Translations under genes and position numbers: made by a program
Shown: piece after piece, positions 8,454 through 12,685 of the stretch
How the letters are laid out: every line of letters begins with the position of its first letter
How positions within the stretch are numbered: position 1 is the first letter of the stretch
The notes under the pieces: model-generated
The model's database searches: none
The model's input: the letters and a program-made list of their open reading frames with translations, nothing else
Told to the model about the DNA's origin: nothing
Origin: Acidobacteriota bacterium
Lineage (GTDB): Bacteria > Acidobacteriota > UBA6911 > RPQK01 > JAJDTT01
Reading direction: 5' to 3'
Assembly: GCA_965263035.1 (NCBI GenBank)
Contig: OZ253580.1
Coordinates: forward strand, 192,001 to 256,000
DNA: 64,000 bases

Positions 8454-8612
8454 GAGTCTGCGCGGTAGAAATGATCGTAGCGAGAAAGTGGGGAATCGAG
8501 GCCGGATTTTCTCGATTTTGAGGTGCATAGTTGTTCTATTCGCCGAGAAATCGAGGAAATATGGACCGATTCTACCGCTTTCGCAGTAGATCAATTTCTG
8601 CGGCGCAGGCTC
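8454..8612. mobile_element. MITE family B (159 bp), non-autonomous element with the ends of the IS1182 element
   Basis: TIRs GAGTCTGCGCGGTAGAAAT / ATTTCTGCGGCGCAGGCTC; CTAG duplication at 8450-8453 and 8613-8616; left TIR matches an end of the IS at 11087-12685 at 17/18 nt; whole element is an imperfect palindrome. Confidence 0.88.
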
Positions 8613-8618
8613 CTAGCC

Positions 8619-11080
8619 CTGCCCTTTACCCACATATTGCACAGGGCAAATTAGCCGTCCGGTTTCATTCATGTTTCTTCTCGTAAAGCGAAGCCCAGAC
8701 ACATGCCGTAGAGCGTGACGTAGCCCTGCCACATCAGTTGATGCCCAGGTGGGGAGTCGTGTTTACGAGCCAGATATCCTCCCAGGCGGGCCAGCACGAG
8801 CACGGCCGCCCCCAGGTCTTCCGGCGCTGGGAATCCTCGCGACGCGGCAAACGCCCCCAGGACCCGAATTTCCAGATCCGAGAACAACAATTGCGCCGGC
8901 AGGTCCGGGTCCTCTCGCCCCAACAGCGTCATCAGCATGATCCGCCAGGCGATGACGGCGTGCATGGCGATGGCCCGTTTCAGACGTTCGGCGGTTTGGT
9001 GCTGGAGCTGTTGTACCCGGCATCCGGTCTTGAGCACCCGGAAATAATCCTCCACCCGCCAGCGCAGCGCATACCATCTCAGCAGTTGCTGCGCCGTCTC
9101 GACATCGGTCACCGGCAGGGTGGTGAGCAGGAACCATTCCAGGCGCTTCCCCTGCGCCGGCGGCGCGACCTCCCGCGCGTGCACCACCGACAGTCTCAGC
9201 GACGGGATGCCGGTTGGGTTCCCGCGCGGCGCCGGAATCGTCAGGGTCTCGTAGCGCAGTTCCATCCGAGCCACCCGCGCCAGCCGCCGCGGGCGGGCCG
9301 CCTGCTTGCTGGCCTTGATCCGCGCACTCTGACGCTTCACCTCCAGCAGCATCCGGGCCCGCACCGGCGCCGATCGCAGGCGCCCGAACAGCTTCCGCTT
9401 CTGCTCCGGGTCCGGATCCGCGCTTTTCCCGGCCGCCTTCGCCGGGGTCTTCCTCTTCAGCACCCGATCCTGCTTCGCACGCACCAGCAACTCCACCTCC
9501 GGAGACGCTCGTTGCTCGGCGAACAGTGCGAAAAAATCCGCCTCCCGGTCCACCACGCTGACCACCCGCACCCCGTCGAGGGACCGCGACACCTCGGCGC
9601 AGTCCCGAAGTCCCTCGATCCAGCGATACGTCTTCTTCTTTTTCCGCGTGGCCACCGGTCCCGGCTTCGGCGCGTCCAGCTTCGCCCGCAACACCCCCAG
9701 CGGCAGCCCCGTCTCACTCACCACCAGCGTCGCGTGCAGATGCAGTCCCCGCGCCGTCGCTCCCGTCTGGTTGCGCCCGATCACCCCCAGTCCCTCACAC
9801 CGGCCGTGCCGCGTGAAGTTCAGATCGCTCCCGTCCTGGATGCACAGCACCGTCCGCTGCCCCTGCATCCGCTGCCGGGTCCGCTCCCGGTGCGGGGCCA
9901 GGATGTTGGACACCGTCACCGCCGAGGCTTCCGGCTGGTCGATCAGCCGGTAGTATCCCTTGACCGCCGCCGGATCGCCCCGCGCCACTCCCGTGAACGC
10001 CCGCCCCGGCTCCTGCGCCTGACGGTGCGCACTCTCCACCAGTCGCCGACTCAAGCGCCGGTCTCCCAGCGGCGCCCCGCCCAACTCCTGCTGAGCCCAG
10101 CCCTCTCCCTCCAGTCCCTCGCCCTCCGACATCGGTTCCACTCCCCGCCTCGGCGCCGGTCCCACCCCCAACCGCCGACGCCAATCCCGGCACAACTCAT
10201 ACCCATAGATCGCCTTGCTCGTCTCCGCACCCCGGTGCGCCCGATCTTGCCGGCCTCGACCCTGCGTCTGCCCCAGAACCCTCCAGTTCGTGGCGCGCAA
10301 ACTGGCCCCATCGTGGCGAGCCGTCTCCACGAAGGTCTCCACCAGCCAGGGACGGTAGCCGTAGCGCGCCTGGAACTCCGGACCCAGCCGCCGCAACACC
10401 TCCCCCAGCACCCGGGAGGCCAGATTACGACACCTCACTGACGGACGGATCAGAAACCGGCTCAGCCCCACCACCCGGTGCAGGTGCGCCCGGCGTTGTT
10501 CCTCATCCCATCCGATCCAGCGGTCCCGGTCCCGCAACCGCAACGCCGCCGCCCCGAACCCCAAGCCCCCCAGCCAGCCGTGCGCCGAGCCCACCAGATA
10601 GCGTAGTTGAGCACCCACCAACGGCCCCGCGCCCCGTGGATGCTCTCGCGCCATCAACTCGTTCCAGAGCGCTCGTTGCGGACCCGTCTCCACCAGAATC
10701 AACTCCAGCTCCCGCACGCCGTCCACCGTCTCGGGCACTTCCACCGGCTCCGGCACCGCACGGCCCAGTCCTCGGGGCCCGCAATGTTTCACCCGCCGTC
10801 GCGGCGTCGGCAGACGAATCCGTCCGCCCGCCTCCAGCTCCCGGAGCGCCTTCAGGCAGCCGCTCCGTTGCGCCCGCCCTCGGGCATCGTGAAATCCAAA
10901 CTCCGAGCAGACCCGGTCCGCCAGCGCCGTCCGGTGGGCGAACTTCTCCCGCCTCATCACGGCGTGCAAACGATCCAACTCTCGGCTCAAGGTGCGCTTG
11001 ATCTGGTTCTGAACTACCATGTCGTGAAGACTACGACAGGCATTCTTGTTTGTCCAGCACTATTTGTGGGTATAGGGCAG
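8619..11080 (-). mobile_element. IS4-family (IS50/Tn5-like) insertion sequence, 2462 bp
   Basis: TIRs CTGCCCTTTACCCACATAT / ATTTGTGGGTATAGGGCAG resemble IS50 ends; target duplication TCCTAGC(C/T) once the IS1182 is removed. Confidence 0.88.
8669..11020 (-). CDS. IS4/IS50-like DDE transposase with N-terminal DUF4338-like domain (783 aa)
   Basis: C-terminal part: LGDRRL..RL, IQDGS, DREAD, YALRWRVEDYFRVLK (YREK), LGGYL..K.D.PPG; N-terminal about 290 aa: RDRWIGW, RFLI.P.V...NLAS, ETFV, ATNW..LG.T.GRGRQDR. Confidence 0.88.
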   Translation of the reverse strand: MVVQNQIKRTLSRELDRLHAVMRREKFAHRTALADRVCSEFGFHDARGRAQRSGCLKALRELEAGGRIRLPTPRRRVKHCGPRGLGRAVPEPVEVPETVDGVRELELILVETGPQRALWNELMAREHPRGAGPLVGAQLRYLVGSAHGWLGGLGFGAAALRLRDRDRWIGWDEEQRRAHLHRVVGLSRFLIRPSVRCRNLASRVLGEVLRRLGPEFQARYGYRPWLVETFVETARHDGASLRATNWRVLGQTQGRGRQDRAHRGAETSKAIYGYELCRDWRRRLGVGPAPRRGVEPMSEGEGLEGEGWAQQELGGAPLGDRRLSRRLVESAHRQAQEPGRAFTGVARGDPAAVKGYYRLIDQPEASAVTVSNILAPHRERTRQRMQGQRTVLCIQDGSDLNFTRHGRCEGLGVIGRNQTGATARGLHLHATLVVSETGLPLGVLRAKLDAPKPGPVATRKKKKTYRWIEGLRDCAEVSRSLDGVRVVSVVDREADFFALFAEQRASPEVELLVRAKQDRVLKRKTPAKAAGKSADPDPEQKRKLFGRLRSAPVRARMLLEVKRQSARIKASKQAARPRRLARVARMELRYETLTIPAPRGNPTGIPSLRLSVVHAREVAPPAQGKRLEWFLLTTLPVTDVETAQQLLRWYALRWRVEDYFRVLKTGCRVQQLQHQTAERLKRAIAMHAVIAWRIMLMTLLGREDPDLPAQLLFSDLEIRVLGAFAASRGFPAPEDLGAAVLVLARLGGYLARKHDSPPGHQLMWQGYVTLYGMCLGFALREET

Positions 11081-11086
11081 TCCTAG

Positions 11087-12685
11087 GAGCCTGCGCTTTA
11101 GAAAGTTTGTGGGACGATGCAGACTGTCGGTTCCCGCATTGACGATCCCTATCGCAACAATTCTTCCGGTCGGCAGTCAGGGGGAACTCCCGAGACCCGA
11201 CTCTTGGAACGAGAAAACCGGTTGCGGCGGGCTCGGAACCTCGTCGGCACCTCTGATTCGCACCGCTGGGGAGCCATTTTCAGTGGAACGCTCCTCATTT
11301 ACGTCGCGATCAAGGTTTGCAGCCGTTTCACGTTCAGCGCCAGACACACCAAGTCCCACTCCCCTTGCACCTTCTGGAGTCCTCGAAGGCTGAAACGCCG
11401 AAATCCCAGCACTTCCTTGATCCAGCCGTGGGCCGCTTCGGACCGCCATTTGCGGGTGGCGTATAGCGCCCGGCCCGCCGCCGTCGTCAGTTTCTCCGCC
11501 ATCTGCCAAGTCGCCGGTGCCGTCTTCGGATCTCCGCTTTTCGTCGCCTTCTTCCCCTCCCGCCCCAGCGCCACGTAACCGTCGATGCCCCGCGTCTCCA
11601 GTTCGGCCAAGTCCCGTTCGTTGGCGTAATTCGAATCCGCCAGGATCGTCTCCGGCTGTCGTTCGTAGGTCTCCTTCACCGCATCCAGTTGCGCGATCAT
11701 CTGACCTTGGTCGCTCGCGTTATCCGTCACTTCCGTCGCCACGATCAACTGATTCGCTCCCTCCACCGTCACCTGCGCGTTGTAGCACTGCTGGAACCCC
11801 TCGGTGCTCGTCTTCATGATCCCGCTCTCCGGATCCGTGAAGTTGCTCTGCGCCTTCGGGTCCGGTTCCCCGTAGGCCCGTTTGTACGGCGGCCCTCCCT
11901 TCGGATTCCGATCCTGTCCCGGCTTCCGGCCCCGGGCGTCATCCGCCGCTCGTGGCTTCGCCTCGAGGCGCTCTTGGGCCGCCTGAATCGCCGCCAGACG
12001 TGTCTTCCGCCGACGCAGATCCTTCGGCACCTCATCCCCCCGATTCGCCTCCCCATACCGAGCGTCTTCCTCGGCATCCGTCTCTCCCGCCCTTCGCAGC
12101 AACTCCCGGATCTCCTCCTCCAGTCGGCGTTTCGCCTCCGGCATCCGCTCGTAGCTCATCGCCTTGCGCTTGCTCGCATTCGCCCGCACCTTCGTGCCGT
12201 CGATCGACAACTTCCCGAAACTCACCAGCCCCAGTTCCCGCGCCAGCCCGATCACCTCCACGAACAGCTTCCGGAAGTCCTCCAAATGCCGGCGACGAAA
12301 CTCGCAGATCGTCCGATGCTTCGGGAAATTCCCCGCCGCCAGCATCCGATACGCCAGATCCTCTTCCAACTTCTTCGCCATCCCTCGCGATGAGAACCCC
12401 CCCGTCGCATACCCGTAGATCAGGATCTTCACCATCATCCTCGGCTCATACGGCGTGTTGCGCCGTCCGTCCCCTTCATAGGGGGCGTAAAACGCCGTCA
12501 GGTCCAGCCGGTCCACCAGATCGCTCACGTGGTGCGCCAAATGGTCCTCCGACAACCAGTCCCGCAGATCCGGCGGCAACAACAGCTTCTGCTTCGGGTG
12601 GTAGGGACGAAACGTCGTTGGCATCCAACACCTCCGTCATCTATTCTCCCATCATCGTGAGACGCTGTTTCTACGGCGCAGACTC
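11087..12685 (-). mobile_element. IS1182-family insertion sequence, 1599 bp
   Basis: TIRs GAGCCTGCGCTTTAGAAA / TTTCTACGGCGCAGACTC; CTAG duplication at 11083-11086 and 12686-12689. Confidence 0.9.
11299..12624 (-). CDS. IS1182-family transposase
   Basis: YEPRMMVKILIYGY, IDGTK..ANAS, TDPES, YNAQ, ADSNY, RK..SE..HG.IK...GFRRFSLRG; GGAGG RBS. Confidence 0.92.
   Translation of the reverse strand: MPTTFRPYHPKQKLLLPPDLRDWLSEDHLAHHVSDLVDRLDLTAFYAPYEGDGRRNTPYEPRMMVKILIYGYATGGFSSRGMAKKLEEDLAYRMLAAGNFPKHRTICEFRRRHLEDFRKLFVEVIGLARELGLVSFGKLSIDGTKVRANASKRKAMSYERMPEAKRRLEEEIRELLRRAGETDAEEDARYGEANRGDEVPKDLRRRKTRLAAIQAAQERLEAKPRAADDARGRKPGQDRNPKGGPPYKRAYGEPDPKAQSNFTDPESGIMKTSTEGFQQCYNAQVTVEGANQLIVATEVTDNASDQGQMIAQLDAVKETYERQPETILADSNYANERDLAELETRGIDGYVALGREGKKATKSGDPKTAPATWQMAEKLTTAAGRALYATRKWRSEAAHGWIKEVLGFRRFSLRGLQKVQGEWDLVCLALNVKRLQTLIAT

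Follow-up and report, generated by a model that had tools for sequence, protein, structure and literature searches.

Introduction

Transposition of IS10 and IS50 is controlled by Dam methylation of the host: adenine marks at the ends of these insertion sequences (ISs) gate the binding of the transposase and couple transposition to replication. The Tn5 transposase functions as a dimer. For the IS50 (Tn5) subgroup of the IS4 family a typical element size of 1350-1550 bp and direct target repeats of 8-9 bp have been reported (PMC2266710). The Mom protein of phage Mu is described in PMC13219725 as a dimeric GNAT-fold enzyme, which places a glycine-derived group on the adenine N6 of DNA with Gly-tRNA as donor; according to the Mom literature it shields the phage DNA from restriction. 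In this work we analyzed a stretch of 64,000 nt from an Acidobacteriota bacterium (GCA_965263035.1, contig OZ253580.1, positions 192,001-256,000, forward strand), which is called the window in the following. At positions 8619-11080 the window contains an IS with a single gene, in which a Tn5-type transposase is preceded in frame by a module of the Pfam family DruA/DUF4338. The closest characterised relative of this module is phage Mu Mom. On balance we favor the view that the protein as a whole is an IS50-subgroup transposase which gained a Mom-like GNAT module of about 290 residues, and that this module acts together with the transposase.

Structure of the insertion sequence and its transposase

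The element and the protein encoded by it consist of the following parts (window coordinates, strand, description and basis):

8619..11080, minus strand: whole IS, 2462 bp, single open reading frame (ORF), IS4 family, IS50 subgroup (12 genomic copies with their flanks; end consensus of the subgroup)
11049..11080, no strand: terminal inverted repeat at the side of the ORF start (25/32 positions identical with the other end, 15/16 among the first 16)
8619..8650, no strand: terminal inverted repeat past the stop codon (comparison of copies and flanks)
8669..11020, minus strand: ORF of 783 aa, DUF4338 module fused to Tn5-type transposase, ATG start, stop included (ORF call, Pfam, NCBIfam)
10796..11020, minus strand: residues 1-75, helical lead, winged-helix-like (AlphaFold2 model and VIA-align)
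10166..10720, minus strand: residues 101-285, GNAT-fold Mom-like domain, Pfam DUF4338/DruA (Pfam, AlphaFold2, fold searches, PHROG)
8672..10102, minus strand: residues 307-783, complete Tn5-type transposase with N-terminal DNA-binding domain, DDE/YREK core and C-terminal dimerisation domain (phmmer, NCBIfam)

A comparison of the copies and their flanks revealed that the IS starts with CTGCCC at position 8619 and ends with GGGCAG at position 11080. The 32-bp terminal repeats are imperfect, and the end motif CTGCCCT-TACCCACA is kept in relatives from several phyla. The end CTGCCCTTTACCCACATATT agrees with the consensus of the IS50 subgroup, CW------Y---CA-A--W-, at 6/6 specified positions (table in PMC2266710). 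With a length of 2462-2465 bp in its own genome and 2398-2483 bp in relatives the element lies outside the subgroup-typical range of 1350-1550 bp, a size criterion which is descriptive and not defining; the excess of about 900 bp is due to the N-terminal module of about 300 residues. A 56-nt inverted repeat at the locus is formed in part by the ends of two neighboring elements. The element is an autonomous insertion sequence of the IS4 family, IS50 (Tn5) subgroup, and was active recently.

Within the 783-aa protein Pfam assigned the domains Tnp_DNA_bind (residues 308-363), DDE_Tnp_1 (504-690) and Dimer_Tnp_Tn5 (689-767), and the NCBIfam model NF033590 (IS4 family transposase) matched residues 355-776 with 300.8 bits at a cut-off of 160. 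Using residues 301-783 for a phmmer search of the PDB, the Tn5 transposase (1mus) was found with an E value of 8.6e-29, and the alignment covered residues 11-464 of the 477 residues of Tn5. As this alignment is almost full-length, the transposase part is complete, with some 300 additional residues in the protein. Among 101 aligned homologues the residues D396, D491, E657, Y650, R653 and K664 vary in no more than 10% of the sequences or not at all. We take D396/D491/E657 and Y650/R653/E657/K664 to be the equivalents of D97/D188/E326 and Y319/R322/E326/K333 of Tn5. An internal start at M297, which is aligned with the start of the Tn5 transposase, was considered and rejected as a conserved feature: this position is Leu in 118/147 homologues and Met in 11/147.

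Predicted fold of the N-terminal module

The Pfam model DruA/DUF4338 (PF14236) matches residues 102-261 with 3.1e-31 and 109.1 bits at a gathering cut-off of 27, and the same family is matched by 81/81 members of an alignment of relatives. PMC10853773 mentions in passing that DUF4338 is a GNAT domain. An AlphaFold2 model of residues 1-300 based on 81 aligned sequences (predicted local distance difference test, pLDDT, 93.7; predicted template modelling score, pTM, 0.85) shows a GNAT fold for residues 100-292. Phage Mu Mom (8bv8_B) was the best match of the module with both structural aligners, with an E value of 1.3e-5 in Foldseek and a Z score of 14.7 in VIA-align (root-mean-square deviation 3.7 Å, 169 of the 202 residues of Mom aligned), whereas ordinary GNAT proteins scored at most 12.2. 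The fold itself is broadly represented, with 34 PDB chains at a Foldseek E value of 0.001 or below and 193 representatives at a VIA-align Z score of 8 or above; nearly all of the listed rows of both searches are GNAT acyltransferases.

At the level of sequence, the module and Mom are 17-18% identical. PDB sequence searches with the module alone or with a 19-row profile yielded chance matches only and did not find Mom; the link to Mom therefore rests on the fold search, on PHROGs and on the Pfam matches of relatives. 'Mom-like DNA modification protein' is the sole PHROG match of the window protein (E 3.3e-4) and is matched by relatives with values down to 1.7e-9. The Pfam model Mom (PF25680) is matched by 14/81 relatives at an E value of 0.01 or below, and two of them were seen above the cut-off of 27.1 bits.

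Both proteins have the motifs RN-x-x-S and (Y)-x-A-x-N-(W/F) and an acidic residue after beta5 in common. In ordinary GNAT proteins the pyrophosphate of coenzyme A (CoA) is usually bound by a loop with the sequence Q/R-x-x-G-x-G/A. This glycine-rich loop was not found in the module, whose beta4-alpha3 loop reads RPSVRCRNLAS and contains no glycine; Mom has HDDMPRNSES at this place. Using hhalign to align the profile with Mom, R188, S202, E232 and L241 were paired with R101, S114, D139 and Y149 of Mom, and the pairing of H127-P128 with H48-Y49 was obtained by eye. According to PMC7261163 and PMC13219725, the Mom residues H48, Y49, R101, S114, D139 and Y149 are required for activity (numbering of the 231-aa form; the numbers in PMC13219725 are 10 higher). 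R141 is a further important residue of the active site, and R101 is described as kept among Mom homologues, not across GNATs (PMC7261163).

The lead in front of the GNAT fold was modelled as residues 1-100 (AlphaFold2, pLDDT 90.6). Its VIA-align matches were almost all winged-helix domains, among them those of gyrase, GntR, IclR, Zalpha and SelB, with Z scores of 4.8-6.3; Foldseek found nothing significant with the same model (best E 2.1). Due to the low Z scores and the missing support by Foldseek, winged-helix-like is a moderate call.

These results can be compared with the initial annotation of the locus. It had placed a 783-aa ORF (8669-11020) into an IS with IS50-like ends, and this assignment holds, with the true ends at 8619 and 11080 slightly outside the coordinates given there. 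The intact DDE/YREK transposase claimed for the C-terminal part is confirmed by the Pfam domains, by NF033590 and by the full-length alignment with Tn5. For the N-terminal part it had listed the motifs RDRWIGW, RFLI, NLAS, ETFV, GASLRATNW and LGQTQGRG, and HPRG in place of the HYLG of relatives, all of which are present; the membership in DUF4338 proposed on this basis agrees with the Pfam match. The resemblance to Mom, which had been proposed there, was recovered by the fold search, by PHROG and by the Pfam Mom matches of relatives. The divergence from HYLG and YxAxNW is likewise real, with P128 and L241 at the positions of Y49 and Y149 of Mom.

Conservation of the module

To describe conservation within the family we used a full-length alignment of 147 sequences. 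It consists of the query and 146 homologues of 700-830 aa, which align over more than 90% of the 783-aa frame; 5 of 151 candidates were dropped due to a query coverage below 90%. The residues H127, Y141, W171, R188 and E228 are invariant (147/147), S202 is kept in 144/147 sequences, and position 232 is E or D in 140/147. Among the putative equivalents of the seven Mom active-site residues, four (H127, R188, S202, E/D232) are fixed and three have drifted. Sister lineages retain the full set of HYLG and GTCY(R/K)AANW, in free proteins and fusions alike.

The identity to the query was calculated separately for the GNAT part and the DDE core. In a set seeded with the N-terminus the values were 66.6% and 53.0%, respectively, but this set was gathered with an N-terminal query and is biased towards the module. 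In loci seeded with whole-protein patterns, the GNAT part reached 62.9% compared to 53.3% for the DDE core and was higher in 19/19 evaluable loci (one further locus could not be evaluated, and four with broken frames were left aside). It was also higher in 2/2 evaluable loci found by the transposase part alone. Judged by these identities, the module is more conserved than the catalytic core of the transposase.

Genomic copies and target sites

The IS is present in the 6.2-Mb genome in 12 full copies, which are 98-100% identical, together with an interrupted copy and a 589-bp fragment. With 12 full and nearly identical copies in the genome, the assignment as IS is not a matter of chance. The 783-aa frame is intact in 12/12 full copies and differs from the window copy at 0-19 residues; no other Tn5-type transposase was found in this genome. 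Perfect 8-bp duplications NNCTAGNN are present at 10/12 copies, a length within the 8-9 bp of the subgroup, and CTAG occupies positions 3-6 of both flanks in 12/12 copies. As CTAG is rare in this genome (2024 sites in 6.2 Mb, observed/expected 0.09), the CTAG-centred insertion shows that this target is strongly preferred. In the main text of De Palmenaer et al. 2008 (PMC2266710) 'CTAG' is not mentioned (0 occurrences).

The copy in the window is one of the two without a perfect duplication, and its flanks are:

8611..8618, no strand: flanking 8-mer TCCTAGCC, one copy of the target duplication (the flanks of the window copy differ at 2/8 positions)
11081..11088, no strand: flanking 8-mer TCCTAGGA (the last two bases belong to the neighboring IS inserted at the same CTAG)

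On both sides the IS is adjoined by other elements, a miniature element of 159 bp (8454-8612) and an IS1182-family IS of 1599 bp (11087-12685), each flanked by CTAG. The latter encodes a transposase of 441 aa (11299-12624, minus strand; NF033551, 363 bits). Deleting 11087-12685 plus one CTAG from the sequence yields the flank TCCTAGCT, which matches the left flank at 7/8 positions, and this suggests nested insertions at a single CTAG in the region of the window copy.

For relatives in other genomes both ends could be located at 30 of 33 loci examined. Perfect 8-bp duplications were found at 15 of these 30 loci (11 of them centred on CTAG), 7-bp matches at 2 and no duplication at 13; many of the loci are contigs of 2.4-4 kb, whose flanks are possibly chimeric.

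The miniature element and the IS1182-family IS have ends of the type GAGYCTGCGC...AGAAA in common. Genome-wide 292 such ends (142 + 150) were counted, so this IS1182-type family, miniature derivatives included, is very abundant in the genome. At least two unrelated IS families insert at CTAG here, and therefore a sizeable share of the surviving CTAG sites lies at IS borders. The tetranucleotide GATC is over-represented (observed/expected 2.29). A stretch of about 100 kb (C1:1353245-1453924) contains five of the 12 full copies, all in one orientation, which suggests local hopping or an IS-rich island. In the interrupted copy (C1:334752-339007) an insert of about 1.8 kb separates the query positions 941 and 938 (query of 2510 bp, window 8595-11104); the two parts overlap by a few bases, which resembles a target duplication made by the intruding element.

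Distribution of the fusion

A search with residues 1-300 against 5.8 billion proteins gave at least 3123 matches at an E value of 0.001 or below among 8000 candidates scored. Among the matches listed, 120/120 contain PF14236 together with the Tn5 DNA-binding domain and, where named, they are called 'IS4 family transposase'. An exhaustive search of 50%-identity representatives yielded 6271 matches at 0.001 or below and 3239 at 1e-10 or below. The named hosts belong to the Acidobacteriota, with the closest relatives at 96-98% identity, the Beta-, Gamma- and Deltaproteobacteria, the Planctomycetota, the Puniceicoccaceae, the Bacteroidales and the Brocadiaceae. Within the same phylum the transposase part was detected in 10/401 sampled genomes, a tally that counts the own genome and one unpublished genome not otherwise used. 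The fused transposases of this phylum are 44-84% identical to the query, the unfused Tn5-type transposases only 32-37%. Among plasmids of PLSDB the fused form was absent, as 0/440 matching records cover 80% of the query. To judge from these database matches, the fusion is widespread and common in environmental bacteria.

Contigs of metagenome-assembled genomes (Rhodoferax, beta-proteobacterial and others) often stop inside this IS family and match only the last 30-50 residues. Contigs that break inside an IS are the usual sign of a multi-copy repeat, so that these genomes probably contain many copies, more than were counted.

Two-gene forms and free-standing DUF4338 genes

In a genome of the same order (locus L099) an IS of 2689 bp with inverted repeats contains two genes. 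The first encodes a DUF4338 protein of 293 aa (Pfam 4.9e-53), which is 43% identical to the window module, and it overlaps the start of the second gene, which encodes a Tn5-type transposase of 477 aa. Further loci were found in metagenomes by a profile of free-standing DUF4338 proteins, and the best 80 of at least 592 loci were classified according to the neighbors of the DUF4338 gene:

33 loci: IS66-family transposase gene directly upstream, same strand, separate ORF
7 loci: Tn5-type gene directly downstream, separate ORF
3 loci: Tn5-type gene directly downstream, same frame (fused)
10 loci: neither type, at least 600 nt on both sides
27 loci: flanks too short for a decision

A transposase gene is located beside the DUF4338 gene in 43/53 decidable metagenome loci. 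Pfam confirmed the neighbors in 6/6 tested cases for the IS66-type upstream and in 2/2 for the Tn5-type downstream, with overlapping stop and start. In addition, two fusion proteins of an IS66 transposase with DruA were seen. The module hence recurs with DDE transposases of two families which are not related to each other, either fused or in an overlapping gene.

The IS66-type two-gene ISs of about 2.6-2.8 kb, with inverted repeats of the type GTAAA(T/C)ATTCGG, were observed at the metagenome loci L115, L117, L130, L137, L139, L147, L149, L154, L163, L168, L173 and L181. Their first gene encodes an IS66-family DDE transposase of 560-600 aa, and the second, which overlaps it, a DUF4338 protein of about 290 aa. 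No further ORF of at least 200 codons is apparent in them; the shorter tnpA and tnpB were not searched for. These two genes are usual in IS66 elements and are shorter than 200 codons. A Tn5-type IS of 1.5 kb at L102/L109 (G101:C172) has ends close to those of the L099 element (CTAAC-TTACCCA) and contains no DUF4338 gene. Its transposase frame holds a TGA, and the IS has possibly arisen by loss of the module.

Comparison with known systems

The IS described here agrees with IS50/Tn5 in the three transposase domains, the DDE/YREK residues, the end consensus and the length of the duplication, but it is longer and differs by the N-terminal module and by strictly CTAG-centred targets. The two-gene forms contain the same module, likewise together with a DDE transposase and between inverted repeats; in contrast to the window IS their module is a separate protein with the full set of HYLG and GTCY(R/K)AANW, and CTAG targeting is not evident. 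Compared with phage Mu Mom, the putative equivalents of H48, R101, S114 and D139 are kept in the module, and neither protein has the glycine-rich CoA loop. Mom is a free phage late protein, whereas the module is tethered to a transposase, begins with a winged-helix-like N-terminus and shows no helical insertion in the model.

DruA of Druantia type I belongs to the same Pfam family PF14236, which is named after it, but the gene context of Druantia is not present around the IS module. The IS is a single-ORF element, no druB-E genes were found beside it, and the 12 copies lie in 12 unrelated neighborhoods. The PADLOC DruA model gave only an E value of 0.0041 and 14.3 bits over 48 residues with the IS module. 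In contrast, a true DruA of 677 aa elsewhere in this genome (C1:4621008-4623038) matched PADLOC DruA1 with 3.2e-199 and 661.7 bits, and the BLASTP match between this protein and the IS module comprises 41 residues only (E 3e-4).

The gene of the true DruA lies directly downstream of a gene for a GHKL/HATPase_c_3 protein (517 aa; PADLOC MzaB-like, 1e-14; both at C1:4619451-4623038, L094:2452-6039). It is followed by two ORFs of about 535 aa, which have no Pfam or PADLOC match. The locus may be an atypical Druantia-like system, with no recognisable DruE within the 12 kb examined.

Neither the transposase fusion nor the two-gene IS forms nor the link to Mom was found described in the literature (supplementary files and ISfinder were outside the scope). 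Fusion proteins are already contained in the databases by thousands under a generic name, but we could find no description of the fusion itself in print.

Discussion

The module is quite probably an integral accessory of transposition and not a defense cargo, because it is fused to the transposase or its gene overlaps with that of the transposase, because none of the copies lacks it and thousands of relatives have it, and because it is more conserved than the core. Transposition proceeds by DDE chemistry of the Tn5 type and creates the 8-bp duplications at NNCTAGNN. In the mechanism which we propose, the module would retain the ligand pocket of the Mom type (H127, R188, S202, E/D232) without a CoA loop, as in Mom. 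Together with the winged-helix-like lead it would act on nucleic acid, most probably on DNA at the transposon ends or at the target, and it would read or covalently mark a base there and in this way gate transposition. To judge from sequence and structural model, an action of the module on DNA is possible, if still somewhat doubtful, and it is rather unlikely that the module actually catalyses a modification in this sublineage. The Dam control of IS10 and IS50 provides an analogy only: there the mark comes from Dam of the host, whereas here the element would bring its own marking domain.

Several observations weigh against this interpretation. Three of the Mom-type residues are gone in the sublineage, since position 128 is Pro in 142/147 sequences where Mom has Y49, position 235 is variable where Mom has R141, and position 241, where Mom has Y149, is Leu in 70, Tyr in 44 and Phe in 32 of 147; these differences may have abolished or altered catalysis. 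The window protein itself has no match to Pfam Mom even at an E value of 1, and the hhalign alignment with Mom is weak if taken alone (probability 3.2%, E 0.014). In the AlphaFold2 model there is no helix between the strands 247-251 and 270-275, and an equivalent of the helical insertion of Mom is not seen in it; a glycine- and arginine-rich loop (252-269) is found instead. According to PMC13219725 the activity of Mom needs this helix-turn-helix-like insertion. The link of DUF4338 to transposons is not complete either: 10 metagenome loci had neither type of transposase as neighbor, and in three genome loci the DUF4338 gene lies among housekeeping-like genes with no adjoining transposase. As the metagenome loci were picked by their likeness to an IS-borne protein, the fractions given above overstate the link for DUF4338 overall. 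Finally, no consistent CTAG or duplication was found at the ends of the split elements of the Tn5 type and the IS66 type (1 genome locus; 7 + 19 metagenome loci), and CTAG targeting cannot be attributed to the module. Since the flanks of short metagenome contigs are unreliable, a role of the module in the choice of CTAG is unsupported, but not refuted.

The drift of these residues leads to the question whether the module is an enzyme at all. As a pseudo-enzyme, it would transfer nothing, and its Mom-like fold would serve the transposase only for DNA binding, oligomerisation or autoinhibition. The loss of the equivalents of Y49, R141 and Y149 and the missing Pfam Mom match of the window protein fit this explanation, the strong conservation would suit a structural role too, and a domain related to the dimeric Mom would be joined to a transposase that works as a dimer. 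On the other hand, the invariant residues are those of the pocket (H127, R188, S202, E228/E232) and the glycines of the loop 250-256, a pattern typical for a ligand site, and sister lineages, split and fused, keep the full set of HYLG and GTCYRAANW. We assign a modest probability to the pseudo-enzyme. A smaller chance is given to an acyl- or aminoacyl-transferase which modifies a protein (the transposase or a nucleoid protein) or, like the GNAT toxins of the TacT type, a charged tRNA, and which would tie transposition or growth of the host to the metabolic state. Dozens of acetyltransferases for proteins and small molecules match the GNAT fold at Z scores of 10.5-12.2, the donor of Mom is Gly-tRNA, and other GNAT proteins act on tRNA as well (PMC13219725). 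However, Mom and not a protein acetyltransferase is the top match of both aligners and the sole PHROG match, R188 corresponds to Mom R101, which as noted above is kept in Mom homologues and not across GNATs, the module carries the winged-helix-like lead, and the usual CoA loop is replaced by RCRNLAS.

The initial annotation had also considered that the transposon carries a module for DNA modification or defense as cargo, which would provide a Mom-like anti-restriction or a Druantia-like defense function for the host or for the vehicle of the element. The name of the Pfam family, derived from Druantia DruA, and the protection of phage DNA from restriction by Mom speak for such a role. It is nevertheless very unlikely: in all forms seen the module and the transposase form one continuous frame or are encoded by overlapping genes, PADLOC DruA gives 14 bits (E 0.004) compared to 662 bits (3.2e-199) for the true DruA of this genome, to which the module has no more than the match of 41 residues (E 3e-4), the 12 copies share no neighbors and no druB-E, and no PLSDB plasmid contains the fused form (0/440 records at 80% query coverage). 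Of the overall interpretation given in that annotation, the IS50-like element, the transposase, DUF4338, the likeness to Mom and the divergence of the motifs stand, and the part concerning cargo and defense is not supported. An artificial fusion of two adjoining genes by an error of sequencing or assembly might be suspected from the split forms in other lineages. This explanation is practically negligible, as twelve independent copies have the same uninterrupted frame, more than 90% of it is covered by the alignment with 146 full-length homologues (700-830 aa), and Met297 is not conserved (Leu 118/147, Met 11/147).

For an IS50-subgroup transposase with a Mom-like module acting at its side, the consequences concern both transposons and phage defense. 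No cut-and-paste transposase is better understood than that of Tn5, which also serves as a standard tool of genomics, and here a large natural branch of its family carries an extra enzyme-like domain. The higher conservation of the module in comparison to the core and the strict target of 4 bp indicate an unstudied layer of control or targeting. The identification of Gly-tRNA as the donor of Mom (bioRxiv 2023; Nat Commun 2026) supplies a concrete biochemical hypothesis. In a far-reaching and speculative form, to which we attach only a low probability, DUF4338 modules would generally be nucleic-acid transferases of the Mom type, perhaps with aminoacyl-tRNA instead of acyl-CoA as donor, and would have been recruited by DDE transposons of at least two unrelated families (Tn5 type and IS66 type) to place or read covalent marks on their own ends or on the target. 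If this were true, the module would represent a self-encoded epigenetic switch for transposition, which is independent of host Dam, and DruA would be the self-marking component of Druantia type I by the same chemistry. The role of the module, which is accessible by a transposition assay with one protein, could thus explain a widespread domain found in both transposons and phage defense.

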